A DNA stretch of 64,000 nucleotides from Escherichia phage KIT03: the sequence record AP018932, one strand, 5' to 3'. The position numbers and the translations under genes were made by a program. Under the pieces are notes generated by a model. The model was given only the letters and a program-made list of their open reading frames with translations, was not told where the DNA came from and made no database searches. Of the stretch, positions 1 to 55,194 are shown one piece after another (the first letter of the stretch is position 1; each line of letters opens with the position of its first letter).

Positions 1-2178
1 TTAGGCCGCAAGGGCCTTCATAGTTTTAGCGATTTGGGAAACTTCATCATCACTTAAAGAGTTGCGATATCCGATGAAGTCGGAAACAATACGGAATTTC
101 TTGGTAAACTCAGCAACCATTTTATCACTGTTTTTTGAAGCATTATTTGATAATACATCAAAAAGATTAGTTACTGTCCAGATATCATGACCGATGGTAT
201 CTTTTCCACCATTAAAATATACACCACGCAATGAACTAACTATATTAGCGAGTCGTGTATATTCTTCAGAAACTTCATCTGTACTGAAGTACTTCATCAT
301 AAAATCTAGCTCAGGATACTTGATAATTTTATCAATATATCGTTGAGCTGAACTTGAATAACCTACATACTTATCATAATCTACATCATCAAAAGCATCT
401 ACATATAAATCACGCAAAGCTTCAAAAATACATTGGCACTGACCGAGTTCTTTTACCTTTTTCTGTAAAAGCGGACGAATAACATAAAATTCATTAATGC
501 CAATAAGATTAGCCATACGAATCAAAATATTCATAGATGGATGACAAAGTGATGTAGTACCATCCATAGAGAAAATATCAGAACGATGCATATACGCTAC
601 ATAACCAGTAATTTCATCTGCTTCTGACGTAAGTGTAAATAGTTCCTCTTTTTCCCATCGCCCATCTTTAATTTCAAATTTAAATGCTGTAGCAGCTTTA
701 GGACGAGGAGCTTTACTTTTAACTACCTTTGGAATATAGCTTTTAACTAAAGTTTCAATTTCTGACAGATAATGAATGTTAACTTCATCACTTTCAAACA
801 TTGCCATAATATCAGGTAGTAAATCAATCTGCGATTCTACTTCCGGATTAATAAACAGAAGACGCTCATTGTGATGAATATTCAAAGTGTTATTAAATTC
901 ACTATCATCTAGCGCATGTGCTAATCCACGGACAATATTAACACGATTTTTAATATTATCAATAACGATATTAATTTTTGTTGTATTAATACCAAACAGA
1001 CGATAACTTGATGCAACGGCTGAAGTTTCATGACTTTGCTTAATGCGTTTCAGTCGAGGGTCAAGATTTACTTCATACACCACGCCTGCATTACATAACT
1101 TACTGTCAGGTTCAAACATGCTCTGCATCTTTTTATATGACAGATTTTTAGTCGTGAATTTGACTGAATTACTAATCATATAATCTCGAGCAGAATACCC
1201 CATCTTCATCAATTCACGATATGTGTGACGGGGAGATGTAGATTCTTTAAATCGTTTTACATCTTCATTAAATGCTTTCTCACTAAGCTCTTTAACTCGT
1301 TCAATAATATTTTTACGAGTACGATCATCCAATGAAAGAGCTTCACGTGATGGAGCAATATCAAGTGAACCCATTGGAAACTTAATGTAATTCACTTCAT
1401 TGCGAATGCTTAGCCAGTTACGGTCTCTAATAACACCATCGATAGGATAAACAATACCACCATAGATAGCATATAATCCACCACGATCAGGCCAGTATCT
1501 TTCTGGATTTACACCGTAATAGTCATCAAAATCCGGAAAATAATCAATTTCACGGTCAAGACCATTAATAATAGCTAAATCTTTGAACGGTCGCATGATA
1601 TAAGAAACTTCATAAGCAAAGTTGCTAAAATCTTTTTCTTCAACTGGAACTACAATTTCAATACCAGTTTTATCATCTGGACCCATTTCTTTCACGAATG
1701 TAGGTTTAATTTGTGGACCATCGCCATCCATGTAAGCTACATAACCACGAATTTCACCTTTATGATACGAAGTAATACTAAATGTATCAGTATAACTAAA
1801 CGGAGATTTAGAACCTAAACCAAATCCGCCAATGAAATCGTTAGATTCAGCCTTAGATGAACTGAAGTATGAATTATACAAACCAGGAGAATTATCATCA
1901 CCCTGAATATCAAAATCACTCATACCCGGACCAAAATCTCGGCAAACAAATCGTGGATCTAAACGTCCAGGAACTTGAATGATAAATTTTTCAGGATTTC
2001 CATTGAGAGCATGGGCATCAATCATGTTGGTAATCAATTCACGAACAACTGCGCGAATTTTGTTTGTATACAAATCAGATGACAGAATTTTAAATACTTT
2101 AGGAGATGCTGTGATGCTAAATGCTTTTGATTTAGAACCATTACCAAGAATTGTTTCTTTTTCAGTGGTGATAATCAT
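1..2178 (-). CDS. rIIA: rIIA membrane-associated protein (725 aa)
   Basis: 725-aa ORF, same length as T4 rIIA as recalled; ATPase-like N-terminal motifs; stop codon at window pos 1-3; first gene of the T4-like early block. Confidence 0.88.
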
Positions 2179-2188
2179 AATTTCCTCA

Positions 2189-2392
2189 TTAATTCATATT
2201 ACGCTTAATAACTTCAGCAACTTCTAGTAGTTCATCTTTAGTTGCGGTGTCGGATTGAATTTTATCTCTAATATCTTTAAAGCGGTTTTTAAATTCTTCG
2301 GCTTCTCCCATATCGAAAAAGCGTTGAATGATTCTATATTCTCGATGAACTGCTTTATCAAAAAGTTCTAAATTTACTTTATATGATTTCAT
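2189..2392 (-). CDS. small hypothetical protein (rIIA.1 position), 67 aa
   Basis: ORF directly upstream of rIIA, early promoter immediately upstream at 2418-2447. Confidence 0.55.
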
Positions 2393-2417: not shown

Positions 2418-2447
2418 ATTATACCACATCCTTGTGGTAAAGTAAAC
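2418..2447 (-). promoter_or_regulatory. T4 early-type promoter (GTTTAC -35, 18-nt spacer, TGGTATAAT extended -10)
   Basis: minus-strand reading GTTTAC-n18-TATAAT preceded by TG; plus-strand gtaaac at 2442-2447 and attata at 2418-2423. Confidence 0.6.
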
Positions 2448-4267
2448 TACTGGCTCATCCATTCTTTACGAAGGTCAGCATTATCTCCCATGAGCATTTC
2501 AAAAAGCTCTTTCCAGTTCTCAGGAAGTTTAACAACATCATATACTGGGTTTTGAATCATCTCACGATATTCAGATTTTTCCAAAGAGCCAAGTCCCTTA
2601 ATATAACGGATGCTATGTTTAGGTAGAGCATCTTTGGCACTCTCATATTCAGCGACTGTATAAAACCATTCTTGTTTTTTACCGACCTGAGCGATGATTA
2701 CAGGAGTTTTGACAAAGCGAATTCTTCCTTGTTCAAACAGTTCTGGCCAATTACTAAAAAATCCGAGCAGAGAAGGATAAATGCTTCCTAAACCATCATG
2801 GTCAGCATCGGTCATAATAGCAATATTATGATAATTCAAGTTTTCAGCTTTTTCACCAAGAACTAATCCAGTGATTGCGCAAATATCAAACAGTTCTTTG
2901 TTTTTAAGCATATCAGCATATGACATACCCCAACTGTTGAGAACTTTACCACGCAATGGATAACCACCATGAAGTTCTTTATCACGAACATCAATAAGAT
3001 ATCCGATAGCAGAATCACCCTCAGTCAAGAAAAGAGTAGTGTCAGCATCTTTACCGCAAAGATTCGCTTTGATATGTTTATGAACCTTAGCTTTAGAAGC
3101 CTTTTTAGCTGCTTTAGTTTCTGCTGCTTTTTCTGCTGCTAATTTACGTGCTAAAGCAGCTTCAATAATCGGCATTAAAATTGCTTCATTATTTAGAATA
3201 GCGCGTGAAATCTTTTTAGCATCAAGTTGAATATGACTACGAATTTCACCAAAAGGAGAAGTAAGTCGTTCTTTAGTTTGAGAATCAAATCGCATGTTTT
3301 TCATATCACGGACAAACATAACGATAGTCAAACATTCTTTGACACGTGCTTTAGTTACATCAATTTTGAACTTACGTTTGATTTGTGGAATAAGGTCTTC
3401 ACAAATATCATCCATAACACAGTCAATGTGATGGCCGCCATTCTTAGTGTGAATGTTATTCACATAAGTTAATTGACGAAATCCATCCGGTGAACGACCA
3501 ACCGCAATAGAACAATTTTCTTGTTCTTGAACAATAGCATGTTCATCATACTGCCGTGCATATTTCTTAAAATTGCCCTGAACCTTTTTACCATTAAAAG
3601 TAAATTGAATATCAGGATAAACAACAGCAAGTGTCTGGAGACGATCTAGTGTAATGTCAAGATAAACTTGGGACAGCTCATTAGTTTCAAATGACATAAA
3701 ATCAGGAATGAAAGTAACACGGGTTCCTTTCCATTTTCCTGGAATAGTTTCCCAGGATTTATTTTCCATGCCATTTGAACAACGAACTACAATATTATTT
3801 TGACCATCGCCAGTTTCACCGACAAACATCACAGAAAAAATGTTAGTTAAACTAGAACCAACACCATTCATACCACCGGTGACACGTTCTTTATCATCAC
3901 CAAAGTTACCACCTGCTTTTGGAATAGTCCATGCAGCAACAGGACCAGGAATTTCTTCACCGGTAGGTGTTTTAACCATTGCCTGTGGAATACCGCGACC
4001 GTTATCTTCAACTGTTACCTGATTATTTTTAATGGTAACATTAATTTTATTTGCGAATTTAAACTTAGTACGAATACCTTCATCGACTGAGTTATCGATA
4101 ATTTCATCAATAAGCTTAACAAGACCAGGTACATACTGAACACTTTCCCATTTACCAAACAGAAAGCGCTCATGCATTTCATTAGCAGAAGAGCCAATGT
4201 ACATGCCACTACGCTTTTTGATATGTTCAATATCGCTCAGAATTTTAATTTCATTCTTAATCATCAC
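2447..4267 (-). CDS. 39: DNA topoisomerase II large subunit, GyrB-like ATPase; single fused ORF covering T4 gp39 plus gp60
   Basis: 606-aa ORF with GyrB-type ATPase N-terminus and TOPRIM-like C-terminus; uninterrupted, unlike split T4 genes 39/60. Confidence 0.88.
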   Translation of the reverse strand: MMIKNEIKILSDIEHIKKRSGMYIGSSANEMHERFLFGKWESVQYVPGLVKLIDEIIDNSVDEGIRTKFKFANKINVTIKNNQVTVEDNGRGIPQAMVKTPTGEEIPGPVAAWTIPKAGGNFGDDKERVTGGMNGVGSSLTNIFSVMFVGETGDGQNNIVVRCSNGMENKSWETIPGKWKGTRVTFIPDFMSFETNELSQVYLDITLDRLQTLAVVYPDIQFTFNGKKVQGNFKKYARQYDEHAIVQEQENCSIAVGRSPDGFRQLTYVNNIHTKNGGHHIDCVMDDICEDLIPQIKRKFKIDVTKARVKECLTIVMFVRDMKNMRFDSQTKERLTSPFGEIRSHIQLDAKKISRAILNNEAILMPIIEAALARKLAAEKAAETKAAKKASKAKVHKHIKANLCGKDADTTLFLTEGDSAIGYLIDVRDKELHGGYPLRGKVLNSWGMSYADMLKNKELFDICAITGLVLGEKAENLNYHNIAIMTDADHDGLGSIYPSLLGFFSNWPELFEQGRIRFVKTPVIIAQVGKKQEWFYTVAEYESAKDALPKHSIRYIKGLGSLEKSEYREMIQNPVYDVVKLPENWKELFEMLMGDNADLRKEWMSQ

Positions 4268-4316
4268 TTATCCTCGTTTGGTTTCGGGAATATTATACTC
4301 CGGCATTCATAAAGCT

Positions 4317-4334
4317 AAAGGCCCGAAGGCCTTT
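4317..4334 (-). terminator. stable hairpin, UUCG tetraloop in mRNA (7-bp stem)
   Basis: plus aaaggcc-cgaa-ggccttt; immediately after stop of upstream ORF. Confidence 0.55.
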
Positions 4335-4603
4335 TATTTAAAACGAATAGTTGAATCCTTAAAGAACAGCCCAGAACATACTGTTCCTTCTACTTTCTGC
4401 CCGGTAGGTCCAACAGCACGAAATCCAGTATGTTGGAAATCATTTTCAGAGCAACCGAACCAGTTATATCCAGTGATTTCAATATTCGTAAAACCACTTG
4501 ATGATAAAATTTTAGTTGCATTATCAGCATCAGTACATCCTACTAAAAATACTGCTAATACTAATGCTGCGATAGAACGATTAACATATTTCATAATTTT
4601 CAC
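4334..4603 (-). CDS. predicted lipoprotein (signal peptide with LVGC lipobox), 89 aa
   Basis: N-terminal hydrophobic segment followed by Cys; RBS; position equivalent to T4 39.1/39.2. Confidence 0.55.
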   Translation of the reverse strand: MKIMKYVNRSIAALVLAVFLVGCTDADNATKILSSSGFTNIEITGYNWFGCSENDFQHTGFRAVGPTGQKVEGTVCSGLFFKDSTIRFK

Positions 4604-4974
4604 TTAAATTTAATGGCTTGAAGAAGACTAATAATTCTCAAACGGCTTCTTTCATCTTTAACTGTAAAAGAAAGAGGGTCGCCAGATTTCATAGTAATAG
4701 TGCATTCAAAATCAAAATCTTCTGTGACTTCTTCGAAGAAGTCAAATTCTTCATCATAAATTAGAACACTACTTTGCAGACTGTGAAGAGTTTTTCCAGC
4801 ATTTCTGCTAACTGCTGTACTAATCATTGTAACATTATGACCTTTCATATCTTCAACGATAAATTCACTAGTCAATATTACAGCATTAATAGAACTATTC
4901 CTATTACTAGCAGAAAGTAGAAATTTCTTTTCTTCGCCTTCGCGAATACGATACTTCTTACCAATTTTAAACAT
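4600..4974 (-). CDS. hypothetical protein, 124 aa
   Basis: ORF with ATGA stop/start overlap to downstream gene. Confidence 0.5.
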   Translation of the reverse strand: MFKIGKKYRIREGEEKKFLLSASNRNSSINAVILTSEFIVEDMKGHNVTMISTAVSRNAGKTLHSLQSSVLIYDEEFDFFEEVTEDFDFECTITMKSGDPLSFTVKDERSRLRIISLLQAIKFK

Positions 4975-15476: not shown

Positions 15477-15686
15477 TTAAATTACATGATTATTTATAAT
15501 AAATTCTCGCGGAACGTTAAAATATCCGATTTTAGTTAATATAACAACATCACCATTAATAATTACCGGAGAATAATCTTCTGAAGCATTAAATTTCCAA
15601 TGGGCTCTAATATTATATCCATCAGAACCAAATGCTCGACTAGCCGTTCTCCCGGCTTTTTGCCATGCATAAAAATCAAATTTCAT
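15477..15686 (-). CDS. hypothetical protein, 69 aa
   Basis: ORF. Confidence 0.45.
   Translation of the reverse strand: MKFDFYAWQKAGRTASRAFGSDGYNIRAHWKFNASEDYSPVIINGDVVILTKIGYFNVPREFIINNHVI
15491..15498 (-). promoter_or_regulatory. late promoter TATAAATA for soc
   Basis: exact TATAAATA on minus strand about 30 nt upstream of soc ATG, followed by AAGGAGA RBS. Confidence 0.6.
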
Positions 15687-15886
15687 TTTGAATGCTCTAT
15701 AATTAATTTTAAGGCTTCTTCACGCACCAACTTGTCTAATGGTATATGCCCAGTTTTAATTGTGTAAGCTTTGTGGAGCTGATTAGATAAGAGCTCGTAT
15801 GTGAGCTCTTTGTCATAATCTTTAAATAGCTGGTCAATACGTTTCTTGCGGGCTTTCTTAAGCTGGCGTTTATTTAAACGAGCCAT
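15683..15886 (-). CDS. hypothetical protein, 67 aa
   Basis: ORF. Confidence 0.45.
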   Translation of the reverse strand: MARLNKRQLKKARKKRIDQLFKDYDKELTYELLSNQLHKAYTIKTGHIPLDKLVREEALKLIIEHSK

Positions 15887-16404
15887 TAATAGCCTCTGTC
15901 TTGACGAGCGAAGTTTTCAGCATTTTTCAGATAATAAAGTTTAAATATTTCTTCAGCTGACATTCCAAGAGCAATAAATTTATTCATGAAAAAGTGAAAT
16001 TGGTCAATCAGTTCAAATTTAATTTCAAGCTGATCTTCAGGAGATAAGTCTTGAATTTTCTTGGATTGCATTTCAGAATAACGTTTCTTCCAAGGTTTCC
16101 ATACAGCAGAAGCTTCTTTTTCACCATTACTCATACCACCAAGAGAAGTATATAGCTCGCGAGTTTCGTCTGCGATATAATCGTCTTGGTTTCGCAGCCA
16201 AGCAAGAACTTCTCCTGCAGTTTCAAGTGAATCAGGATGACGATTTGTTTCTGGTTTATCATTAGCCAAACGAATCTGTAAATGCCGCTGCATGTCAAGC
16301 ATAACCTGCAATGGGTCAATACTGTGCATAATATACTCAGCATATGCACGATTTGCTTTATCAACACCTTCGATCAAATGAGCACATTCGTTAAAGTAAG
16401 CCAT
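15886..16404 (-). CDS. 56: dCTPase/dUTPase gp56 (MazG-like)
   Basis: start set to ATG at 16402-16404 (172 aa, close to recalled T4 gp56 171 aa); ORF-track N-terminal extension is antisense of a plus-strand ORF. Confidence 0.75.
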   Translation of the reverse strand: MAYFNECAHLIEGVDKANRAYAEYIMHSIDPLQVMLDMQRHLQIRLANDKPETNRHPDSLETAGEVLAWLRNQDDYIADETRELYTSLGGMSNGEKEASAVWKPWKKRYSEMQSKKIQDLSPEDQLEIKFELIDQFHFFMNKFIALGMSAEEIFKLYYLKNAENFARQDRGY

Positions 16405-16438
16405 TATTTTTCCTTTCAATTCATGGGTTAGTAGATTA

Positions 16439-16462
16439 ATTATACAATAAATATATAAAGCA
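16439..16462 (-). promoter_or_regulatory. middle (MotA-type) promoter for gene 56
   Basis: minus strand TGCTTTA - 11 nt - TATAAT. Confidence 0.5.
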
Positions 16463-16475
16463 ATAAGGAGGACAT

Positions 16476-16676
16476 ATGGTACAAAAATTAATGGCACTTG
16501 TTAATGCCATAAAAGGTAATAAAAAACGTATAGCTTTTACTATTTCTGCTATGGTAGGAATTTTACTCTGGAACTTTATTTTATCACCAATTGCAATTGC
16601 ACATGGTGTTAATATTCCAGTAGTTACTCTTGATACATTCGTAGATCTAGCATTTGCTTTAGTTGGGTTAATTTAA
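16476..16676 (+). CDS. small hydrophobic protein, 66 aa, on the opposite strand
   Basis: AAGGAGG 4 nt before ATG; two hydrophobic segments; sits in the otherwise non-coding 56-61 interval. Confidence 0.4.
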   Translation: MVQKLMALVNAIKGNKKRIAFTISAMVGILLWNFILSPIAIAHGVNIPVVTLDTFVDLAFALVGLI

Positions 16677-17701
16677 ATCTTAGCATATTTAGATAGCCGC
16701 ATTTTAGCCATCAACCCCTGGGCAATATTATTTTTCATATATTCCATAATTTGTTCAGGGGTTGCACCTTCCTTTCTAATCATATCATTGACATCTTTTG
16801 ATTTCCAGGGAGATTTATCCCAAAACATAACCCTTTCTCCTGCATCAACTAATTTAGTCATTCGCTTGATAGTGTCAGGGTGACGAGGTTCATTATCTAA
16901 AACCCACACTCGTCTATCTTTAAATGGAACAACTTCTAGGTCTAATTGACCGCCAGTAATGGCTATACCATTTTCAATAAAAAGTGAATCGATAGGTCCT
17001 TCTAGAACATATACATCACCATCTTTAACTCGTTCAACACCGTAAATTTTTGTTGCCTCAGGATAAGCTTTAATGGTGATATATTTTTGAGGAGCATCTT
17101 TCTTTAATGCACGTCCTTGAAAAGACTCAGCTTTTCCATTAGCATTATAAATTGGAATAACAAGACGAGGCTCAGGAATTTCCTTTTTGTATGTTCCTGG
17201 TGCTATGCTATTAACTAATTTAGGCCATTCGGTTGTAAACCAAAGATATTTCCATTTATCCTTTGGAATACAACGAGCTTTTACGTATTTTATAATTGGA
17301 TGGTCTTCCGCCAGTTTATCTAATCTAACACATGACGGAAGAGATTTAATTATTTTCTTCTCAGGTTGTTTAGGAAGTTCTTTAGGTTTTTCTACTGGAC
17401 GACTTTTACCTTTTTCTTTTCTTATTTCAAAGATATACTCACGATATAAATCGGGTTCAAACTCCTTTAAATATATTCCGATTGGTGCATGATAGTTACA
17501 GTTATAACAATGAATATTTCCTTCATTATTATCACCATAATACCATCCACGAGCTTTATTTTGGTCGGTTTTTGAATCTCCACAAACAGGGCATCTAAAC
17601 CGCAATTTAAAAGTTGAACTATTATTTACTTGTGTGAATTTAGGTAAATGAGCTAATGCACGGTATGCAAACTCATTATCAATCCAAGGTATTGATGACA
17701 T
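16673..17701 (-). CDS. 61: DNA primase gp61
   Basis: 342 aa equals recalled T4 gp61 length; N-terminal zinc ribbon CPVCGDS...CYNC. Confidence 0.9.
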   Translation of the reverse strand: MSSIPWIDNEFAYRALAHLPKFTQVNNSSTFKLRFRCPVCGDSKTDQNKARGWYYGDNNEGNIHCYNCNYHAPIGIYLKEFEPDLYREYIFEIRKEKGKSRPVEKPKELPKQPEKKIIKSLPSCVRLDKLAEDHPIIKYVKARCIPKDKWKYLWFTTEWPKLVNSIAPGTYKKEIPEPRLVIPIYNANGKAESFQGRALKKDAPQKYITIKAYPEATKIYGVERVKDGDVYVLEGPIDSLFIENGIAITGGQLDLEVVPFKDRRVWVLDNEPRHPDTIKRMTKLVDAGERVMFWDKSPWKSKDVNDMIRKEGATPEQIMEYMKNNIAQGLMAKMRLSKYAKI

Positions 17702-21507: not shown

Positions 21508-22663
21508 TTAACTGCTCAAGGTCAGTTTCTAAATCAGCAGCTGATTTACTTTTACTTTCTGGAGATTTAAATTTTTCAACCTTTGAGTTAATCAATTCAT
21601 CAACTTCAGCTTCAACAATTTCATTACTATCAATAGCACCTAACTGATAAGCACGTTTAATAGCATCTCGGAATGGTTGATGCTTAAATAAAGGACCCCA
21701 GAATGTAGTGCAGTTGGTATCTTTTGCACGCCAAGATTTTTCTTCGCGAATCATCTCGCCGGTTTCTTCATCAAGAAATTCACGAGCATACCAACCATTT
21801 TTAGGTTTTACCACGAATCCTAATTCTAGAGCCATATCTAACAATCCAGAATAAGGATCGATACCGCCGTCAAATTTAACATCAATAAAGAATTTACTTT
21901 TTTCTTTAACGGTACGAGATTTTTCTACATTTAGAACAAATTGATACCCTTGAAGATCAGAACCATCTTTAATCTGACGTTTACCGATAATGAATACGGT
22001 ATCAGCCGAATACATTACGCCTGTACCACCTGTCATCACGGTTTTACTAAACATTTCAATTGTTTCAATTGTATGGTTAACCGCAACACATGGAATGTTT
22101 TTAATACTAAAATAAGGAGTAACAATACGGAATAATGACTTCAGTGATTTAGCACGAGTCATATCTGCCACAGATTTTTCATTCAAGGCATCTTCCGTTT
22201 CTTTCTTAGAAGCCATATTACCAATTGAGTCGATGAATACAATAACTTTTTCACCACGCTCAATAGCTTCAAGCTGATTCACCATATCAATTTTCAGCTG
22301 TTCAACTGACTGAATTGGTGTATGAATTACTCGTTCCGGGTCAACTCCCATGGATCGCAAATAAGCTGGAGTAATACCAAATTCGCTATCATAGAATAGA
22401 CATACCGCGTCAGGATATTTGTTCAAATACGCCGCAACCATAGTCAAAGACATATTTGATTTAAAGTGTTTAGAAGGACCTGCAAAAATGGTTAAACCAG
22501 ACTGCATACCACCATCAATCGCACCAGAAATAGCGATATTAAGCATTGGGATTTTTGTACGAATTACATCCTTTTCATTAAAGAATTTAGATGTAGTCAG
22601 TTCAGCAGTCATTTTAGAAGTGGAAGCTTTAATCAAACGGGATTTTAAATCTGCAATAGACAT
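21482..22663 (-). CDS. uvsX: UvsX recombinase (RecA-like)
   Basis: 393 aa; RecA fold motifs. Confidence 0.9.
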   Translation of the reverse strand: MSIADLKSRLIKASTSKMTAELTTSKFFNEKDVIRTKIPMLNIAISGAIDGGMQSGLTIFAGPSKHFKSNMSLTMVAAYLNKYPDAVCLFYDSEFGITPAYLRSMGVDPERVIHTPIQSVEQLKIDMVNQLEAIERGEKVIVFIDSIGNMASKKETEDALNEKSVADMTRAKSLKSLFRIVTPYFSIKNIPCVAVNHTIETIEMFSKTVMTGGTGVMYSADTVFIIGKRQIKDGSDLQGYQFVLNVEKSRTVKEKSKFFIDVKFDGGIDPYSGLLDMALELGFVVKPKNGWYAREFLDEETGEMIREEKSWRAKDTNCTTFWGPLFKHQPFRDAIKRAYQLGAIDSNEIVEAEVDELINSKVEKFKSPESKSKSAADLETDLEQLSDMEEFNE

Positions 22664-22740
22664 TCATTTTTTCCATAGGCATCATTATATTTTCCTCACT
22701 GGTTAAAGATAGAGTAATTATAACACAATAAATTTAGGCA

Positions 22741-23589
22741 TTAATCAACTGCTATTGGATGAATAGCATTAAACTTATGAAACGCTTCTGATTTTTCTTT
22801 GCGCGAAACACACATGCGAAGAACCTTTAATGGCTCGTCTTCTTCACCCAACGATTTTCTCTTTTCAATATTCGATGTTTTCCAACGAGCTTGCTCTGGA
22901 AACTCTCTATTGATTTGCTCAAGAGCTCTATTATGTTTTGAATTACTACGAATTGAACTGCACCCGCCCGGAGCCTGTGCTTTTCCAGATACAACCAGAT
23001 ATTTGAACAAGGCCAAATGCGGATAACCTTGATTAATTAAATTGAGAAATGCATACATATCTTCGCATAAATCAATTTTTCCATACCCAATTTGTTCTGT
23101 TGTAAGTTTCCCGAGGTCATACCAAGTATTCGTGAATCCATATGAATTTTCACGATAATTACCCCAAGATGAAGTAATTTTAAAAATAGGTAGACGAGCA
23201 TGACCGTGATAATACCCGCAATCCATGGCATCTTCCACGTATTGAATCAATTCATAGAACTGTTCACGAGTTAATTGATTAATTTTATCTACACAGCGAC
23301 GATCATCTTTCTTTCGCATTGAACTCATACGAATAGTAGTATCATCATCAATCATCCAGATTCGTTGACCTGCATACATATCAGTAATTGCTTTACGAGT
23401 ACCAGCAATTCCATTAACATCATCAGGAATAGTTATAATTTTGGCTTTAGACCCGTAAGCGTCATAATAAGCTTTTTCTTCGTGTTCACGTACTACAATA
23501 TGAGGTTCATAATCAGTCGGAAACATATCAAGGGCAGAAACTGCCCCTACGCGTTGATAGCTTGGAATTACGAATTGAATCATTTCCAC
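22741..23589 (-). CDS. DNA glucosyltransferase, 282 aa, at the T4 beta-gt position; possibly T2/T6-type
   Basis: ORF between uvsX and 42; shorter than recalled T4 beta-gt (351 aa). Confidence 0.5.
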   Translation of the reverse strand: MEMIQFVIPSYQRVGAVSALDMFPTDYEPHIVVREHEEKAYYDAYGSKAKIITIPDDVNGIAGTRKAITDMYAGQRIWMIDDDTTIRMSSMRKKDDRRCVDKINQLTREQFYELIQYVEDAMDCGYYHGHARLPIFKITSSWGNYRENSYGFTNTWYDLGKLTTEQIGYGKIDLCEDMYAFLNLINQGYPHLALFKYLVVSGKAQAPGGCSSIRSNSKHNRALEQINREFPEQARWKTSNIEKRKSLGEEDEPLKVLRMCVSRKEKSEAFHKFNAIHPIAVD

Positions 23590-24320
23590 TCACCATTATA
23601 ATCTTTTTTCACAATATGAGTTTCGCCAGTATTCCACCAATGATCAACCAAGTAAAAATGACGAGAATATACATGAAGACTTCCAACATTCCATATAATA
23701 GAACCTGCTTTATACTGACGAGTTGAATCACCTGCATTCAAATCAGATACTAATTTATCTAGTACGTATTTTTGCCATGCATAATCATTACGGAATCCGA
23801 AGACCACGTCATTTGAACGCATGCTTACTACTGCATTGACTTTCTTATCACGAATCAGGTATTGTACTGTATTCGTACACATGAAATCTGACATACCATC
23901 TTTATTGTAGTCAAATTGCATGGATGGACGAGTATAAATCATGATACCGCGTCGAGAATCAGGATTTTGACCAAGTTCAGCTAAACACATATCATATTGG
24001 GCATAGTTATCTTCTGACCAGATGGCCCAACCATAATTCGAATTAATTTCGCCTTTAGAAGATGCTACCTGTTGCCAAATCTTCGGTGTTTCACCTGGAA
24101 TATCTTTAACAAACAAACTTTTAGATTTATACCATTCAAGTTCACGCTGAATGTATTCATCATTAAGAGCGCCAAAAATAAATGGTTCATCTGCTACAAA
24201 TGATGCGCCAATAATTTCAATAGTTTTAACGCCAGTTTTATCAACTACGAAATCTTTTTCCTTTAATGCAAGCCCCAAATGAAGACGGATTTCTTCAACT
24301 GTCATAGAGTCACTAATCAT
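23580..24320 (-). CDS. 42: dCMP hydroxymethylase gp42
   Basis: 246 aa equals recalled T4 gp42 length; thymidylate-synthase-like. Confidence 0.88.
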   Translation of the reverse strand: MISDSMTVEEIRLHLGLALKEKDFVVDKTGVKTIEIIGASFVADEPFIFGALNDEYIQRELEWYKSKSLFVKDIPGETPKIWQQVASSKGEINSNYGWAIWSEDNYAQYDMCLAELGQNPDSRRGIMIYTRPSMQFDYNKDGMSDFMCTNTVQYLIRDKKVNAVVSMRSNDVVFGFRNDYAWQKYVLDKLVSDLNAGDSTRQYKAGSIIWNVGSLHVYSRHFYLVDHWWNTGETHIVKKDYNGEWK

Positions 24321-33346: not shown

Positions 33347-34201
33347 TCACAATGAAGAAAATTCTTTAACTAAAGCCTGTAATGAAGCCTCTATTGGATA
33401 TCCATTCTTAACTAACATTTTCCTAAACATTACATGTTTAGGACGATTATATGATATCCACAATTCATACAATTTATCTTTATTATCCCAATGATAGCCT
33501 TTTCGTCGAGATGCTATATGAGCTTTTCTAATCTCCGGATTTTTCCAACTAGCAGCTACTGAATTTGATATAGCTATTTTATATTCAGGTTTTGATAAAG
33601 CAGCACGAACAGCCTTTTGGTGTTTAATTTTATTTTCTTCGTTATTAAACCATTCCCTTGAAGCCATTGAAATTTTTTGTTTTGTTTTAAAATTATTTAA
33701 TCTTTCTTTATTATCTTTCCTATTTTTTGCTACTGAAAAATATTTTAATGCCCTTTCTCTAGCAGCATTTCTATTTTGCGGATTTGAATAATACTGTTGA
33801 AGCCTTTTTGATATTGTGTCACTTACATCTTGTTTTATAAAACTATACTCAGCAGCTATTAAATCAACTTCGGCTAAAGATAAATTTTTATATGTTTTTC
33901 CTGACATCATTCTATTTAAAGCATTTAGCATTTTTCCATTTTTACCTTTTGCTAATAAGAAGTGTGCTTTAAAATGATTAAAATGACTTAAATTAACTAA
34001 ATTCCATGTAGATTTTAAATATTCAGGAAATATTGATTTAGGAAGCACGTGGTGTGCTTCCGTTTTACCTGGAGTTTTAACAGTTGAATTCACAGAAATA
34101 AAATTAATGTAAGACTTGGCGTCTTCTTCACTCAACGCTAATTTTTCAACTAATTCCTTTATTAAAAATTCATCATTAATGTCAAGTTTAAAATTCTTCA
34201 C
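33347..34201 (-). CDS. free-standing HNH homing endonuclease, 284 aa
   Basis: HH...N...H motif (EAHHVLPKSIF...NLVNLSHFNHFKAHF) and basic C-terminal DNA-binding region. Confidence 0.65.
   Translation of the reverse strand: MKNFKLDINDEFLIKELVEKLALSEEDAKSYINFISVNSTVKTPGKTEAHHVLPKSIFPEYLKSTWNLVNLSHFNHFKAHFLLAKGKNGKMLNALNRMMSGKTYKNLSLAEVDLIAAEYSFIKQDVSDTISKRLQQYYSNPQNRNAARERALKYFSVAKNRKDNKERLNNFKTKQKISMASREWFNNEENKIKHQKAVRAALSKPEYKIAISNSVAASWKNPEIRKAHIASRRKGYHWDNKDKLYELWISYNRPKHVMFRKMLVKNGYPIEASLQALVKEFSSL
33347..34201 (-). mobile_element. homing endonuclease gene inserted between genes 46 and 47
   Basis: T4 has only small ORFs here (recalled); N-terminal motif duplicated in next ORF. Confidence 0.5.
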
Positions 34202-35842: not shown

Positions 35843-37043
35843 ATTTTGTAATAATGTCAAACTGTTCTTTAAAGCAGAAGCTTGAATCTTGATGCTGATA
35901 CAAAAATTCATAAGCTTTTTCACGTTCGCGGTCATAAAGAGTTCGGTCAGATGACAGTTCTTTAATACGTTCAAATGTTGATTCCATGTCATTTTCATCA
36001 AACCAAATGATACCGCTATCATGCGAGGTCAAAGGAGTATTATCAACACGGAATTTTAAATTTTCGCCAGTAGATTTCCAAAATACCGGAATTGTTCCAC
36101 ATGCACCAAGCTCGAGATGAGTATATTCTAAAGAACGTTGTAGATATTTTTTATCCAACTTACTCAACTGATAACCAAAACCGGATTTACTCATACGTTC
36201 AAGCATTTCGCTATTTACATAACGGTCAAGAATTTGCGTTGGCAAATTAGGAGCAATTTTAATTTGGTCTACTTGATGAAGACGATAATACTCGTATGGA
36301 ATTCCTTTTTCTTTAATAGGAATGAACGCTGGAGAACGTTCCAGACCTTCCATAATAGTACTTAGTCCTGCAGGTTTAAGATGTTTTTCGTGAAAATCAA
36401 ACATCTGATAAAAACCTTTCCATGTAGTCGTACGACCAATCCAACGGTTGATATTCATGTTAATTTCAGAAACATCTTTCCAGTAGGTTGATCGAACCTT
36501 CGCAATATCCATAGGAGGCTGAAAGTTATATACGGTCGGTGCTTCTTCAATATCATCAAACAGAGAAACAGTTTCTGGATACCACTCTTTCATCAGAACT
36601 TTATTAAAATCACCATTATCAGAATGGCTAAAAATAACATCAGCTCGACGAACAGTTTCTTCTAATCCCAAATTTCGGCGCAAAGAAAGAGAAGAATGGT
36701 CATGTTGATAAACTACAACACGAACCGAAGGTTTAATGTTATCAATAATTTTTTTATAGTTATTAATAGTGTCTTCTTCTACTGAAGTAGCAGGAACTGA
36801 ATTGATAATTAGAATATCACAATCATTTACCAGCTTAAGTGTTTTATCGTATTCTTTTGCCAATAAAACCGGAATTGAAAATGATTTATAATCATGCGCG
36901 CAATTACGAGTAAATGATTTATCTTTAGCATAAACCAAAGTTACTTCATGACCATTTTTAATAAACCAATCACGCTGCTCGAGAGAAAATTTAGTTACGC
37001 CGCAACCTTCAAGACCTCGAGCCATAAAAATACATACTTTCAT
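35841..37043 (-). CDS. a-gt: alpha-glucosyltransferase
   Basis: 400 aa equals recalled T4 alpha-gt length. Confidence 0.85.
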   Translation of the reverse strand: MKVCIFMARGLEGCGVTKFSLEQRDWFIKNGHEVTLVYAKDKSFTRNCAHDYKSFSIPVLLAKEYDKTLKLVNDCDILIINSVPATSVEEDTINNYKKIIDNIKPSVRVVVYQHDHSSLSLRRNLGLEETVRRADVIFSHSDNGDFNKVLMKEWYPETVSLFDDIEEAPTVYNFQPPMDIAKVRSTYWKDVSEINMNINRWIGRTTTWKGFYQMFDFHEKHLKPAGLSTIMEGLERSPAFIPIKEKGIPYEYYRLHQVDQIKIAPNLPTQILDRYVNSEMLERMSKSGFGYQLSKLDKKYLQRSLEYTHLELGACGTIPVFWKSTGENLKFRVDNTPLTSHDSGIIWFDENDMESTFERIKELSSDRTLYDREREKAYEFLYQHQDSSFCFKEQFDIITK

Positions 37044-37067
37044 TTAATATCCTCATTGTTTTGGTTT

Positions 37068-41076: not shown

Positions 41077-41547
41077 TTAATCATGTTTCCACACCCCATC
41101 GGTATTTGACCAAAGTCGCTGATTATCTGATCCTCGCCACAGCTTTTTGGTCGGAAGATTTTTCTCATACTTCCCATCAATAATAACATCAACATATTTA
41201 AGCATTTCTAGTTGTTTAATATCTTCAAATTTATATCCTGTCCACAACCAAATGCTTTTATTGGGATAAAAATTTTTTACTGTTTGAACAATGCAATGAA
41301 CAACATCTCGGTTATCAGGATAGAGAGGGTCTCCTCCAGTTATAGTTAATCCTTCTATATAATCATTATTCAAACATTCAATTAATTGTTCTAGTGTTTC
41401 ACCAGTGAATGGAACGCCATTTCTAGCGTTCCATGTTGATTTATTATAACACCCTTCACATTTATGCAAACAACCTGTAACGAAAAGAACGACCCTGCAT
41501 CCAGGGCCATTCACAAAATCGCAAGGATAAAATCTATCATAATTCAT
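41077..41547 (-). CDS. nrdG: anaerobic ribonucleotide reductase activating protein NrdG (radical SAM)
   Basis: 156 aa; CxxxCxxC cluster GCLHKCEGCYN. Confidence 0.85.
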   Translation of the reverse strand: MNYDRFYPCDFVNGPGCRVVLFVTGCLHKCEGCYNKSTWNARNGVPFTGETLEQLIECLNNDYIEGLTITGGDPLYPDNRDVVHCIVQTVKNFYPNKSIWLWTGYKFEDIKQLEMLKYVDVIIDGKYEKNLPTKKLWRGSDNQRLWSNTDGVWKHD

Positions 41548-43361
41548 TGGTGTTTAACCCTATGCATGATTTCTTTATTTTTGCCGAGATTAAATCCACG
41601 TTCGTTCGGATTTCCCAAATAACCACAAGTTCTTCTTATTGTGTTCATCTTTTTAGGATCAGTTTCTCCACAAATAGAACAAACAAACCCGTTTTCAGTA
41701 GGAGTCATTTCATGGGTACTTCCACACGTAAAACATTTATCTACTGGCATGTTAACACCAAAATAATCTAAATGTTGTGCAGCATAATCCCATACAGCCT
41801 CAAGACCTTTTAGGTTATTTTTCATATCAGGAAGTTCAACATAAGAAATGTGACCGCCTGTCGCAATGAAATGATATGGGGCTTCGCGAGAAATCTTTTC
41901 AAACGGAGTAATATTTTCTTCTACTGAAACATGGAAACTATTAGTGTACCATCCTTTATCAGTAACATCCTTTACACTTCCATATTTTTCAGTATCAAGT
42001 TTACAGAAGCGATAACAAAGGTTTTCAGCGGGAGTAGAATACAAGCTAAAAGCAAAACCAGTTCTTTCAGTCCACTGCTTAAGACGAGCATTCATTTTAG
42101 TCAAAATTTCCTGTCCAATATCACGACCGACAAGAATATTCAATTCGTGAATACCAATGTATCCTAGGGACACTGAACTTCTACCGTTTTTAAATAACTC
42201 AATTATGTCGTCATCAGGTTTAAGACGAACCCCGAATGCACCTTCTTGGTAAAGAATAGGAGCAACAGTCGCTTTAACTCCTTTTAAGGAACTAATTCTA
42301 CACATCAAAGCTTCAAAACACAAATCCATTCGTTCATTGAACAATTCGGCAAATTTCTGTTCATTGAATTGTGTTCCAATATAAGAATCTAGTGCAATGC
42401 GAGGAAGATTCAGTGTTACAACACCAAGATTATTACGTCCATCAAGAATTTCATTACCAGTCGAATCTTTCCATACACTCAAGAAACTACGGCAACCCAT
42501 TGGAGAAACAGGAATAGATGAACCGGTGATAGCTTTATTGTTCTTAGCTGAAATAATATCAGGATACATTCTTTTGCTTGCACACTCTAGAGCAAGCTGC
42601 TTAATATCATAGTTCGGATCGTCTTTATAAAGATTAACACCTTCTTCAACGAACATAACAAGCTTAGGGAAAATAGGAGTTATCCCATCGCGACCAAGGC
42701 CTTTAATGCGATTTTTCAGAATTGCTTTCTGAATCATTCGTTCAGTCCAGTCAGTTCCCGTACCAAATGTAATTGTTACAAAAGGCGTTTGTCCGTTTGA
42801 ACTAAAGAGAGTATTTACTTCATATTCATACGCTTGGAATGCGTCGTATACGTCTTTTTCTGTTTTAGATTGGGCATAATTCAACGCATCAGCGATTTGC
42901 CATTTTTCTGCATCCTCAATATGTTTTGCATAGGTGCGTTTAACATAAGGTGAAAGTACTTTATCTACATTAGCAAAAGTCGTTCCGCCATATTGATGGG
43001 AAGCAACTTGCGCAGTAATTTGTGCCATAATTGCAGTAGCAACACCGATTGATTTAGGAGTTTCAATCTGCGCATTACCAAGCTTAAATCCGTTCTCAAG
43101 CATTCCTTTTAAATCTACTAAACAACAATTAGTAAATGGAAGAGCAGGGGAATAATCAATATCATGGAAATGAATAATTCCGCTTTCATGCGCTTTCATA
43201 ATAAAAGACGGGACCATATTTTTGGCAATGTGTTTAGACACAATACCAGCCATAAGGTCCCGTTGAGTTGGAAAAACACGAGAATCTTTATTAGCATTCT
43301 CGTTTAAAAGGTCTTTATTAGTTTTATGAATCAATCCTTCAATTTCTTTTTCAATTGTCAT
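41544..43361 (-). CDS. nrdD: anaerobic ribonucleoside-triphosphate reductase NrdD, uninterrupted
   Basis: 605 aa; C-terminal zinc ribbon and glycyl-radical motif. Confidence 0.9.
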   Translation of the reverse strand: MTIEKEIEGLIHKTNKDLLNENANKDSRVFPTQRDLMAGIVSKHIAKNMVPSFIMKAHESGIIHFHDIDYSPALPFTNCCLVDLKGMLENGFKLGNAQIETPKSIGVATAIMAQITAQVASHQYGGTTFANVDKVLSPYVKRTYAKHIEDAEKWQIADALNYAQSKTEKDVYDAFQAYEYEVNTLFSSNGQTPFVTITFGTGTDWTERMIQKAILKNRIKGLGRDGITPIFPKLVMFVEEGVNLYKDDPNYDIKQLALECASKRMYPDIISAKNNKAITGSSIPVSPMGCRSFLSVWKDSTGNEILDGRNNLGVVTLNLPRIALDSYIGTQFNEQKFAELFNERMDLCFEALMCRISSLKGVKATVAPILYQEGAFGVRLKPDDDIIELFKNGRSSVSLGYIGIHELNILVGRDIGQEILTKMNARLKQWTERTGFAFSLYSTPAENLCYRFCKLDTEKYGSVKDVTDKGWYTNSFHVSVEENITPFEKISREAPYHFIATGGHISYVELPDMKNNLKGLEAVWDYAAQHLDYFGVNMPVDKCFTCGSTHEMTPTENGFVCSICGETDPKKMNTIRRTCGYLGNPNERGFNLGKNKEIMHRVKHQ

Positions 43362-44618: not shown

Positions 44619-44929
44619 TTATAGCGTAATCCATTCTCGTACTGTCTGAGTTACTACACGTTCACGGGGCTCGACTAGTTCAACAGTCGGAACTGCATAA
44701 TACCAGTCAGAATGATAAGAACCTGACCGAGATTCATTTACAGACACATGAACGTTATGTTTTGGACTAAAATAAACACACTGACGATATTGGCATTTGC
44801 CGTCTTGCACCCAGTCTTCTATTTCGACAGGTTTAAGATAATCCGAAAAATCGAAATCATAATTTCTGAAAATGCGTCATGGTCTTCGATGATTTCACTC
44901 AGAACTGCATCAACATCTAATTTATTTTC
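44619..44929 (-). pseudogene. ORF of about 103 aa split by a frameshift in a T4 homopolymer run
   Basis: ATG frame 44929-44807 and downstream frame to 44619 overlap; one extra T at 44869-44872 would fuse them. Confidence 0.3.
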
Positions 44930-44948
44930 AATAGTCATTTGTCACCAA

Positions 44949-45158
44949 TTAATTTCGCAATTTATTAAGTTCTTCATAATCAATCCAGGATTCTAGTCCT
45001 GATGGCAAATCAGATTCAATTTCCCAAAGAAGCTCTTCAATTTTCTGAAGACGATCTAATTCTTCGGCTGGAATAGTAACCATTGACGGAGTTCTTGATA
45101 CACTAATATCGTAAATCATATTTACCCCAGTTTGACCATGCAATCGCCATATTTCCAT
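44949..45158 (-). CDS. hypothetical protein, 69 aa
   Basis: ORF. Confidence 0.45.
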   Translation of the reverse strand: MEIWRLHGQTGVNMIYDISVSRTPSMVTIPAEELDRLQKIEELLWEIESDLPSGLESWIDYEELNKLRN

Positions 45159-45337
45159 TTAGAAATAGACTTTTCACCGTTAGAATAATAAACTTCGAGT
45201 TTAGCACGATTATTTTTAATTTGAATAACCTTTGCTGTCATCAAAGTTCCATACCCGTAATAAACTGCAACCTCATCACCTACATATACCGCGCTTCCGC
45301 GGTAGTCATGGATATAATCAGTTCCTTCGAGCATCAT
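45122..45337 (-). CDS. hypothetical protein, 71 aa
   Basis: ORF. Confidence 0.45.
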   Translation of the reverse strand: MMLEGTDYIHDYRGSAVYVGDEVAVYYGYGTLMTAKVIQIKNNRAKLEVYYSNGEKSISKWKYGDCMVKLG

Positions 45338-45597
45338 TTAAAGTATTCCCGCAATTGGTCAAATCCACCAATATGACTTCCATCAGGAGCAAATACTTGT
45401 GGCATTGTCAAACCAATTTGAGTATCACGACCTAGTTTCGTCAGAAGCTCAGCGATTTTCTCATCATCAAAAACACCTTTTTCCGGCATAATGTTGATAA
45501 ACTCAAACGGCTGTTTCTTCACAGTCAAAAGACGTTTTGCATTATCGCAATACACACATTTATGGATGCTGCTATCATAACCATATACTTTAAACAT
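45334..45597 (-). CDS. nrdC: thioredoxin/glutaredoxin NrdC
   Basis: 87 aa with CVYC active site. Confidence 0.8.
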   Translation of the reverse strand: MFKVYGYDSSIHKCVYCDNAKRLLTVKKQPFEFINIMPEKGVFDDEKIAELLTKLGRDTQIGLTMPQVFAPDGSHIGGFDQLREYFK

Positions 45598-45598
45598 A

Positions 45599-45841
45599 TT
45601 ATTCCTTAATTCCTAGTACTTGTTTAAAAGTCTCGTCGTAATCAAGACTTTGACCTGTTTGTTCTTTATGTTTGTATATAATATCACTTACTTCTGATAG
45701 CATATTTTTATATGAACGAGTTATAGCAGATTTAAGCACGCTATATCTATCAGGAAATTTACCGTGTTCATTATAATACGCTATTGCTAATTCACGGACT
45801 GCCTTTTCAGCAGTCTCCATATATTCTTTACGCTTTGTCAT
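45599..45841 (-). CDS. hypothetical protein, 80 aa
   Basis: ORF. Confidence 0.45.
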
Positions 45842-46148
45842 TTTCTTCTCGGTTAAATCGGTGTTTACAATGACGGCATTTATAACGAAGATTACTAGTC
45901 TGCCAATGGACTAATTGAACCTGTTCAGTACCACATTTTGGGCAGTTCGGAACATTCTTAGAAGCCCTTTCGCGACGTTCAACCATAACCATAATAGCAT
46001 CCCAGGCTGGAGGTTTAAAATCTAAATCATCACAACCATGAATCTTTCCGCGCATTTCCAGATCGTCTTCTTCACCAGCCATAATAATAATTTTAATTAG
46101 ACTGGAATTACTTGAAGCTGCAATATCTTCTAATAGACGCTTTTTCAT
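45828..46148 (-). CDS. hypothetical protein with C-terminal zinc ribbon, 106 aa
   Basis: CPKCG...CRHCKH. Confidence 0.5.
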
Positions 46149-52634: not shown

Positions 52635-53648
52635 TCATTTATAATAACTTCGATGGTTTTCAAGATAGACCTTCTCAAGGAAGTCATCCCAGAAACCCAT
52701 GTCTACTTTTTGCTGCATACCGTTCTTAGAAGCTTCAGTAGATGCTGCTTCTACTTGATCGACCACATCTTCCAAAAACTCTTGAACTGTTTTAAATGGA
52801 TGTTTACCCAACTTCACGTCGAGAATAAATGGAGCGTCTTGAAGTGGATAAACTAAGTCACCAGTTTTGTAAATTTCCAATAGTTGAAGTCCACCACGAC
52901 AGGCATGGCTCAGAGCTTTCCAGTCAATACCTTCATTGGCTTCGGCCTTACGAGCACGTTCACCATATTCAGCATCTAATTTGTTCAGTGACTGCTTAAG
53001 CTCAATAAGAGAAAGCGTTGTCTGATATTTACGACCCAACACAGTGTAGAACGTTTGTGGACCTGTTTTCTCATGATTATGGAACACCCATTCACAGAAT
53101 TCGTTTTCTGGAAGACGATGCTTAATATCTTCAATTTTAGTGCGACGTTGTCCTTGTGTTCCATCTTCTCGGTAGACATTCCGTTGATCAGGAATTTGAT
53201 TAATTACTTTCAACACATCACGTAATGCAGCTAGACGAGAACCTTTAACACCATATTTAGAAGCTTGCTTGCGAACATATCCTAAATAGGATTTCATGTT
53301 AGTCGTATAAAAACGAGAACGGTTGTCTTGAATAAACTTCCACACATCAGGCAAATCAGATTTAACTACTAGCTCAGGTGGAGTGTGAAGCATATCCAAT
53401 GCTACGGTTTCACCATCTGCTGCTAATTTAAAGAAATACTTAAGACTATACAATTCATGGTCAATATCATCTTTAGTGTTTTTAGATGATGTGTTGTTAG
53501 TGTTTTTACTCATATGCTCTTTAACATTTCCGATAAGAATATCGCGAGCAGGAGGAACAAAAATTTCTTTAAAATCTACATCAGATTCTGGGGTAGAAGT
53601 TCCATAAAGATGACTACCAAAATAGCTTTTCATTACTGTTTTCATCAT
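52635..53648 (-). CDS. predicted nucleotidyltransferase (Pol-beta-like fold), 337 aa
   Basis: N-terminal GS...SDVDF motif (YFGSHLYGTSTPESDVDF). Confidence 0.55.
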   Translation of the reverse strand: MMKTVMKSYFGSHLYGTSTPESDVDFKEIFVPPARDILIGNVKEHMSKNTNNTSSKNTKDDIDHELYSLKYFFKLAADGETVALDMLHTPPELVVKSDLPDVWKFIQDNRSRFYTTNMKSYLGYVRKQASKYGVKGSRLAALRDVLKVINQIPDQRNVYREDGTQGQRRTKIEDIKHRLPENEFCEWVFHNHEKTGPQTFYTVLGRKYQTTLSLIELKQSLNKLDAEYGERARKAEANEGIDWKALSHACRGGLQLLEIYKTGDLVYPLQDAPFILDVKLGKHPFKTVQEFLEDVVDQVEAASTEASKNGMQQKVDMGFWDDFLEKVYLENHRSYYK

Positions 53649-54106
53649 TCAGCCTTATATTCAATAACAGGACATACTTTAGCTTTACGAGCTTTTAAAA
53701 ATTCAACGATAATCGATTTCTTGGGTTGAATAGGAGGTAAACCTTTATTTTTCCTATCAATGTTTTCTACGTGTAAAGCATAATCCTTTTTCCATTTATA
53801 ATCTTTATATTTTTCACGCAAATGTACAGGAATAACAAATGAACTGATAATAAGTAAAACAACCAAAAGCGCAAGTATAAATGCTGATGGAAGCAAAGTC
53901 CATAAACTACCGAAAATAAGCCAACGCTGTAGGCTTTCTGCACAAATAATTGTTAGCCCTACGAGTATAGCACACCCGAAAATAGAAACGAAAAATGTAG
54001 GAATGGCAATAGACCAAAAATATGCGCATAGTGTCTTAGGTCGTTGCCATTCATCGTTAAACAATTTGAATAATTTATAGTGCCAAGAGTTTTCATTAAT
54101 AATCAT
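53645..54106 (-). CDS. membrane protein, 153 aa
   Basis: two long hydrophobic segments. Confidence 0.5.
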   Translation of the reverse strand: MIINENSWHYKLFKLFNDEWQRPKTLCAYFWSIAIPTFFVSIFGCAILVGLTIICAESLQRWLIFGSLWTLLPSAFILALLVVLLIISSFVIPVHLREKYKDYKWKKDYALHVENIDRKNKGLPPIQPKKSIIVEFLKARKAKVCPVIEYKAE

Positions 54107-54108
54107 AA

Positions 54109-54630
54109 TTATCCTTTCATTGAAGGCGTAACGGTTGTTAAATACTTAATCATAGCTTCAGCTTCTGATTTTGATAATGAAATTTCTCCATTGTTTTGAC
54201 GAATAGAAATAAAATCCGGATGACGGTCACCACCAGCTTTTAAAACACACATATAAGTATCAACTTCGCCTTCAATATTTGAAATGATTGAAGCAGTTCC
54301 ACATGAATGTGGTTTTTGATAAATCAATGCAGCTTTTCTTCCACCGTTTGACTGTTCATAAACTTTTAACACATCAAACAAATCGCTTCTTTTATCAATA
54401 GCTAAGATGTTGTTTTCATCTTCAATGTTAAATCCTTCGGATACTTCATAAAGTGTCACCCATAAATCACCTATATCGATAGTAGCATTTCCTTTTCCAC
54501 GACTTTCAAGAATATGACAAATTTTCTTGATTTCGTCATAACTCATTTTAATAATATCATCTCCTTGAATAAGGAAGATGTCATTTTTAAATTCAACACG
54601 AATTAAACCACTTCCACTTGAAATAAACAT
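54109..54630 (-). CDS. hypothetical protein, 173 aa, paralog of next gene
   Basis: C-terminal SEAEAMIKYLTTVTPSMKG resembles DEAIALKTYLDSVIPTMISK. Confidence 0.5.
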   Translation of the reverse strand: MFISSGSGLIRVEFKNDIFLIQGDDIIKMSYDEIKKICHILESRGKGNATIDIGDLWVTLYEVSEGFNIEDENNILAIDKRSDLFDVLKVYEQSNGGRKAALIYQKPHSCGTASIISNIEGEVDTYMCVLKAGGDRHPDFISIRQNNGEISLSKSEAEAMIKYLTTVTPSMKG

Positions 54631-54636
54631 ATTTCC

Positions 54637-55194
54637 TCACTTTGAAATCATAGTTGGAATGACAGAATCAAGATAAGTCTTTAGCGCAATAGCTTCGTCT
54701 TTGGTAAATGTGACAATATGCGATCGAAAATCATCAATTTGACGAATAGTTAAGACATCTCCATCTTCATAACATTTTGATACGTTTAAAACAGTTTCAT
54801 CATTCTGATTGCAAGCGTTAGTAATAATAGCATTGCAATTTTTAAACCATTTTAAACTATGTTTTCTTTCATTAGAATAATAAAAATATTTAATCTTATC
54901 TATAAAACTGTCCCAATGAATAACTGATAGGCATATTGACTCGCTTTCAATATTAAATCCTGGGCATGAAGAATAAAAATGAATTTTATGCTCATCATTA
55001 ATGCTTACAATTTTATCAGTATAAGGATTTTCAATTTGGGTTAAATGAATGATTTCACTAGGCGTAAAATACATCATATCATCTTCTTGCGTCAAACGAT
55101 ACATATTATTTACTTTTTCTATAGCTAATTCACCAAAAAGTGAACTAACTTCTAATACTAATCGTTTCATATTGATTCTCTTCGACTCACTCAC
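54637..55194 (-). CDS. hypothetical protein, 185 aa, paralog of previous gene
   Basis: shared C-terminal motif; probable GTG start with AGGAG RBS. Confidence 0.5.
   Translation of the reverse strand: MSESKRINMKRLVLEVSSLFGELAIEKVNNMYRLTQEDDMMYFTPSEIIHLTQIENPYTDKIVSINDEHKIHFYSSCPGFNIESESICLSVIHWDSFIDKIKYFYYSNERKHSLKWFKNCNAIITNACNQNDETVLNVSKCYEDGDVLTIRQIDDFRSHIVTFTKDEAIALKTYLDSVIPTMISK

Follow-up and report, generated by a model that had tools for sequence, protein, structure and literature searches.

Within the window, by which we mean the whole 64,000-nt stretch of DNA analyzed here, the minus strand carries an open reading frame (ORF) at 2447..4267 that extends in the ORF listing for 606 aa from a GTG codon and contains no internal stops. 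It is flanked by rIIA (1..2178, 725 aa) and rIIA.1 (2189..2392) and, at its opposite end, by small early ORFs. These genes likewise lie on the minus strand, and this gene order around gene 39 is the layout that opens a T-even genome record. The features of the locus are as follows.

2447..4264, minus strand: gene 39 coding sequence, the uninterrupted GyrB-like large subunit of a phage type IIA topoisomerase (605 aa plus stop)
2783..2845, minus strand: parental segment, codons 474–494, ENLNYHNIAIMTDADHDGLGS, 63 nt (blastn break points, codon comparison, and T2, T6, and RB69)
2792..2809, minus strand: TOPRIM acidic motif D-A-D-H-D-G, residues 486–491, DxDxD metal-binding (motif search)
4097..4105, minus strand: core of the GHKL ATPase N-box, E-x-x-D-N-x-x-D, present as EIIDNSVD from residue 54 (motif search)
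4265..4267, minus strand: in-frame GTG one codon 5′ of the ATG, the mechanical start of the ORF and probably not the initiation codon
4271..4275, minus strand: presumed Shine-Dalgarno sequence GAGGA, 6 nt 5′ of the ATG (reading of the sequence; the same in T4)
4292..4317, minus strand: putative middle-type promoter composed of a MotA-box-like TAGCTTTA, a 12-nt spacer, and TATAAT (reading of the sequence; near-identical in T4)

The second codon of the ORF is ATG (4264..4262), and we consider it most likely that gp39 begins there and is 605 aa long, with 606 being the mechanical length of the ORF. This start is favored because GAGGA lies 6 nt from the ATG versus 3 nt from the GTG, and because translation is annotated from ATG in every curated record examined (T4, T2, T6, and phage 121/2022-2B). 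GTGATG is also found in T4, whose gp39 annotation takes the ATG as the start (MIKNEIK), and the upstream coding-strand sequence, AAACGAGGATAAGTGATGATT, is identical in the window and T4. In T2, T6, and 121/2022-2B, the coding sequence is annotated at 2447..4264 or as an equivalent 1818 nt encoding 605 aa. Translation from the GTG, yielding a protein of 606 aa, seems to us very improbable: GTG is a legal start and the first start codon past the upstream stop, but the short spacing to GAGGA and the uniform ATG annotation of the curated records speak against it, as does the T6 protein, which has been expressed and structurally solved and which aligns from residue 1 as M-I-K. The original prediction had described an uninterrupted ORF of 606 aa; its continuity stands, whereas its length should likely be given as 605 aa from the ATG.

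Upstream of the gene, the arrangement of TAGCTTTA, spacer, and TATAAT resembles the T4 middle-promoter consensus, and we take it to be a putative promoter of this class. It goes unlisted in a sigma-70 promoter scan because it lacks a −35 hexamer. Between 2100 and 4700, that scan returned fewer promoter-like sites than were obtained in shuffled sequences, and a scan of the same interval for intrinsic terminators found none.

The product of the ORF matches the PHROG 543 family, annotated as DNA topoisomerase II large subunit, over residues 1–606 (E = 7e-296), and T6 gp39 structures in the PDB over residues 1–605 (E = 0; 8YLU, 8YO1, 8YO5, 8YO7, 8YOD, 8YON, and 9IMJ). Pfam models place HATPase_c at residues 48–150 (38.4 bits versus a cut-off of 26.4) and the DNA_gyraseB transducer at residues 251–385 (51.1 bits versus 27), and they additionally detect TOPRIM_C (30.7 bits versus 29). 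These PHROG, Pfam, and PDB matches show that the ORF is a genuine gene, not a fortuitous reading frame. Motif searches located, besides the N-box and the acidic motif listed above, the glycine motifs of the ATP lid (DNGRG at residue 87 and GMNGVG at residue 131), the QTK loop of the transducer at residue 329, and the TOPRIM catalytic glutamate motif EGDSA at residue 415. The protein thus has the domain make-up of a type IIA B subunit, with GHKL, a transducer with its QTK loop, and TOPRIM contiguous in one polypeptide.

One difference from T4 next to the QTK loop concerns the T4 reference itself. The reference gp39 (NC_000866 about 4345–4353; window about 3281–3289) reads R-L-I-R-QTK, in contrast to R-F-D-S-QTK in the window, in T2, T6, RB69, and 121/2022-2B, and also in T4T, a resequenced T4. 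At the nucleotide level this corresponds to CGA TTG ATT CGT in the T4 reference versus CGA TTT GAT TCT, a −1/+1 compensated frameshift 5′ of the catalytic loop, and the LIR of the T4 reference probably reflects an old sequencing mistake.

In T4, the same enzyme subunit is encoded in two pieces, gp39 and gp60 (NP_049621.1 and NP_049618.1). The T4 record NC_000866 annotates 39, mobA, 60.1, 60, and a 50-nt bypass region at 2803..2852, in agreement with the original prediction that T4 splits this protein between genes 39 and 60 with a translational bypass element and an inserted mobile endonuclease. For comparison with the window, T4 gp60 was rebuilt from the two coding pieces that flank the annotated 50-nt bypass region. 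In the numbering of the 606-aa ORF, residues 2–474 align without gaps to T4 gp39 1–473 (98.3% identity), and residues 473–606 align without gaps to T4 gp60 27–160 (95.5% identity); in the 605-aa numbering, window residues 477–605 correspond to T4 gp60 32–160. A PHROG family of gp60 type, 7229, likewise matches ORF residues 453–606. The gene in the window is therefore fused and complete, as had been proposed, since it is collinear with both T4 proteins over these ranges. The outcome that was to count against the proposal, a missing gp60-equivalent segment, did not appear in the alignment with T4 gp39 plus gp60.

Nucleotide comparison defines where the two loci part. By blastn, window 4596–2847 pairs with T4 5661–3911 at 95.3% identity and window 2795–2150 pairs with T4 2806–2161 at 98.5%, and the break points between these blocks set T4 2807–3910 (1104 nt) against window 2796–2846 (51 nt). 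Read in codons, the window passes through the junction as ...GEKA, ENLNYHNIAIMTDADHDGLGS, IYP..., such that approximately 51–63 nt of the window stand in place of approximately 1.1 kb of T4 comprising the gp39 tail, the mobA pseudogene/60.1, the gp60 N terminus, homR, and the gap. At the bypass site itself, the window reads GAT GGT TTA GGA versus GAT GGA [50 nt] TTA GGT in T4, and the point equivalent to the T4 gap falls between window positions 2792 and 2791, directly after the Gly codon of DADHDG.

The features found at the T4 locus alone are the ~1.1-kb insertion, a 43-aa gp39 tail, a decayed HNH endonuclease gene, a new gp60 N terminus of ~31 aa, a recoded homR of 15–16 codons, and the 50-nt untranslated gap. 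The window holds no counterpart of the 43-residue gp39 tail (FEEKEDGEW...KNL) or of the ~31 N-terminal residues of gp60 (MKFVKIDSSS...KSSSM). The 50-nt coding gap, which in the T4-type locus goes with a GGA take-off codon, a UAG stop, a stem-loop, and a GGA landing site, is absent from its uninterrupted junction, and a blastn-short search with the gap sequence across the window returned only chance matches of 11–12 nt elsewhere. We conclude that 2447..4264 is almost certainly an intact Tequatrovirus gene 39 of the T2/T6-like type, an empty-site allele that carries neither the ~1.1-kb MobA element nor the 50-nt bypass cassette. The locus never received, or at any rate is now without, the MobA homing-endonuclease element that splits the T4 gene into 39 and 60.

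The patch known as homR provides a further view of the junction. T4 homR is 70–73% identical to the window (70% for the 15 codons before the gap together with the 9 nt after it), whereas the flanks of this patch are 95.6% identical upstream (1356/1419) and 99.1% identical, in nucleotides, across the rest of gene 60 (gp60 47–160). homR has been described as a patch borne by the element that is 67–81% identical to the parental sequence and that, in clade 1, continues beyond the bypass for another 9 nt (bioRxiv 10.1101/2022.08.31.505936). The low identity of T4 homR reads as the signature of imported DNA, and this sharp, local divergence therefore points to window 2783..2845 as the parental counterpart of what the MobA element replaced in T4.

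The closest characterized proteins are also unsplit. T6 gp39 (AXN58044.1/YP_010067157.1; record MH550421, which starts at rIIA) is a 605-aa protein with the same coordinates, 2447..4264, and the same domains; it shares 604 of 605 residues with the window protein, the exception being Q526 in the window versus H in T6, and the genes differ at 65 of 1818 nt (96.4% nucleotide identity). T2 gp39 (BBF63163.1; record AP018813), likewise 605 aa, unsplit, and located at 2447..4264, is identical at 603/605 positions (differences F70L and T173D), with 67 nucleotide differences in the gene (~96.3% identity). More distantly, gp39 of the Mosigvirus RB69 (NP_861694.1) is an unsplit protein of 606 aa with 79.6% amino acid identity to the window; it is collinear across the junction, where it reads EKAENTNYRNIAIMTDADHDGLGS, and an extra ORF, RB69ORF003c, lies between rIIA.1 and gene 39 in this phage. 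The GHKL/transducer/TOPRIM architecture is held in common with the B modules of cellular type IIA enzymes (ParE, GyrB, and the N-terminal half of eukaryotic Topo II), and the alignments to human TOP2A/B and to S. pneumoniae ParE run unbroken through the junction, over approximately residues 6–603 (E about 1e-37 to 1e-60).

How common the two states are was assessed with a 131-nt probe spanning the junction (window 2760–2890). Counting matches with at least 80% coverage of this probe, we found the contiguous junction in 450 phage records. The 1108-nt T4 cassette occurs in 43 records, many of which are T4 isolates; the unsplit state is accordingly about ten times commoner than the T4-type cassette. 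An alternative count of 485 records, based on coverage of at least 80% of the query, is unsafe as a tally of fused genes, since separate pieces may be joined across the 1.1-kb insertion, and the probe was used in its place. A fused gene 39 is the norm among sequenced phages.

The original prediction also held that the fused gene gives the ancestral state of the locus, and our comparisons bear this out. The ancestral reading is favored because of the record frequency, the unsplit outgroups (RB69 and the cellular GyrB, ParE, and Topo II proteins, all contiguous at the junction), and the foreign-looking homR of T4. It agrees with the published account, in which the parental Topo2L gene was unsplit when the MobA element entered it (bioRxiv 10.1101/2022.08.31.505936). 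The opposite history would make the fused gene the derived form: the MobA element, the bypass, and homR would have been deleted precisely from a split locus of the T4 type, or removed when that locus recombined with an unsplit relative. This history can draw on the free recombination and mosaic genomes of T-even phages and on reported lineages in which the endonuclease and/or the bypass has been lost (bioRxiv 10.1101/2022.08.31.505936). In addition, no scar would be left if an unsplit phage in the same infection had served as donor for gene conversion. We nonetheless judge it very unlikely. The 63-nt junction segment is of the T2/T6/RB69 type and bears no trace of the recoded homR, the gp39 tail, or the gp60 N terminus; the outgroups are unsplit; and the unsplit state is by far the more frequent. 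Even if the lineage had regained it by recombination, the allele would be ancestral in type. That the continuity arises from an assembly or annotation artefact, such as a collapsed insertion, has nothing specific in its favor and is hardly conceivable, given an intact reading frame and TOPRIM motif, the recurrence of this contiguous junction across 450 independent records of phages, T2 and T6 among them, and a 100% identical match to the 131-nt junction in phage PinkRuby.

In MobA homing work by Bonocora et al. (PNAS, 2011), the unsplit T2/T6-type gene 39 was reportedly the reference recipient allele. A preprint places the nick and insertion site of MobA, as defined in T2, within the 63-nt parental segment (bioRxiv 10.1101/2022.08.31.505936), and the coding segment ENLNYHNIAIMTDADHDG is the putative MobA nick segment in the window. 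Because the MobA target sequence is retained unmodified, the window allele is a predicted homing recipient in a mixed infection with a MobA-proficient phage; T4T and phage HY01 have an intact mobA. Within the 63 nt, the window differs from T2 by two synonymous changes, ACC versus ACT (Thr485) and TTA versus CTA (Leu492). It might be supposed that these changes make the window allele naturally resistant to MobA, an immune empty site that, if real, would constitute a route to homing resistance without any bypass cassette. We consider this very unlikely, as polymorphisms alone are reported not to have blocked MobA nicking (bioRxiv 10.1101/2022.08.31.505936).

The T6 enzyme provides a guide to the function of the window protein. 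T6 gp39 and gp52 form an A2B2 enzyme that carries out ATP-dependent relaxation of DNA (Xin et al. 2024, PMC11461880), and the phage enzyme relaxes DNA without supercoiling it (PMC11461880). The same study reports that the Topo II subunits number two in T2 and T6 and, uniquely, three in T4, and that the ~70-aa TOPRIM insertion of T4 protrudes from the domain and leaves activity unaffected (PMC11461880). Because a single residue separates the two proteins, gp39 of the window presumably works as T6 gp39 does. With its GHKL ATPase, transducer, and TOPRIM domains, it would combine with gp52 into an A2B2, ATP-dependent type IIA topoisomerase, and this gp39/gp52 enzyme would relax DNA and support the initiation of phage replication. 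A tblastn search with T4 gp52 found no match to this partner in the 64-kb window. Its absence is expected because T4 gene 52, at 163.9–165.2 kb and past rIIB, sits beyond the span homologous to the window.

Gene 39 of the window is 95–96% identical in nucleotides, approximately, to each of T4, T2, and T6. Over the 3-kb region, Escherichia phage 121/2022-2B matches best (99.4%), and the best matches over 25 kb are assorted Tequatrovirus phages at about 96–97%. The possibility that the window derives from T4, T2, or T6 itself is ruled out by the gene 39 identity together with these best genome-scale matches. The proposed placement of the phage as a T-even relative other than T4 holds, supported by the gene 39 identity and by the lack of mobA, segF, segA, mobB, mobC, and the nrdD intron. 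The unsplit gene 39 does flag the window as a Tequatrovirus other than T4; however, the fused gene had been offered as the mark of such a phage, and taken alone it says little, since most sequenced relatives share it (450 versus 43 records).

Knowledge of the unsplit T2/T6-type gene 39 goes back to the late 1980s, and the split and unsplit forms of the gene are textbook material (Huang 1988; Bonocora 2011; Xin et al. 2024). The unsplit gene in the window is thus an ordinary and already known form and presents nothing new. Its practical value is that the locus offers an undisturbed example of the site that the MobA/bypass element occupies elsewhere, and that gene 39 can be annotated here without a recoding exception. 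In itself the unsplit state matters little, and the structure of the T6 protein has already been solved (PMC11461880).

Elsewhere in the window, several further loci differ from T4. Between 46 and 46.1, at a site that is empty in T4, a 284-aa ORF (33347–34201, minus strand) encodes a free-standing Mob-type HNH homing endonuclease. It belongs to PHROG 655, the MobA family, and is 29% identical to intact T4T MobA and ~30% identical to MobD; the full insert occurs in about 70 of 516 related phage records at 99.8–99.9% identity. A MobA element at another position in the window was ruled out by tblastn with intact MobA, which detected only this paralogue, at 29–40% identity, at 33.9–34.1 kb. The phage is without MobA yet carries a paralogous mobile endonuclease elsewhere.

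Other mobile elements of T4 are absent: the window lacks segF, segA, mobB, and mobC as well as the group I intron of nrdD and the endonuclease that this intron carries, at 15499–16465, 22652–23597, 37035–37058, 41527–41547, and 42824–42825, and nrdD is uninterrupted, with 2 nt in the window at the position of T4 44814–45850. On the minus strand at 15886–16497, the homologue of gene 56 (dCTPase) shares just 69% identity with its T4 equivalent, and this sharply divergent patch adjoins the empty segF site. The dam gene (T4 16846–17625) is absent at 16445–16464, where 20 nt of the window stand against 899 nt of T4, and T4 Dam has no tblastn match anywhere in the 64 kb. A 282-aa TET-associated glycosyltransferase (22741–23589, minus strand; Pfam TAGT, E = 1e-9) replaces segA and beta-gt, and alpha-gt is kept at 91% identity to T4. 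The substitution of TAGT for beta-gt, with alpha-gt retained, suggests a T2/T6-style pattern of hydroxymethylcytosine glucosylation.

By tblastn, T4 denV, ipII, and ipIII find no counterpart in the window, and their place is taken by a 157-aa ORF at 62482–62955 (minus strand). The ORF begins MKTYQEFITEA, a start resembling the leader that directs T4 internal proteins to the capsid. The site looks to be polymorphic for internal proteins, and denV seems to have no equivalent. Closer to gene 39, between 39.1 and 39.2, a 124-aa ORF (4600–4974, minus strand; PHROG 622) with a weakly goF-like N terminus is absent from T4 and present in T6 as "similar to RB69ORF005c." Finally, two ORFs on the minus strand at 53645–54630 replace T4 mobD: one encodes a 153-aa predicted membrane-like protein without family matches, and the other a 173-aa y05I-like putative transcription factor (Pfam T4_y05I_N/C) that adjoins a 185-aa ORF at 54637–55194.
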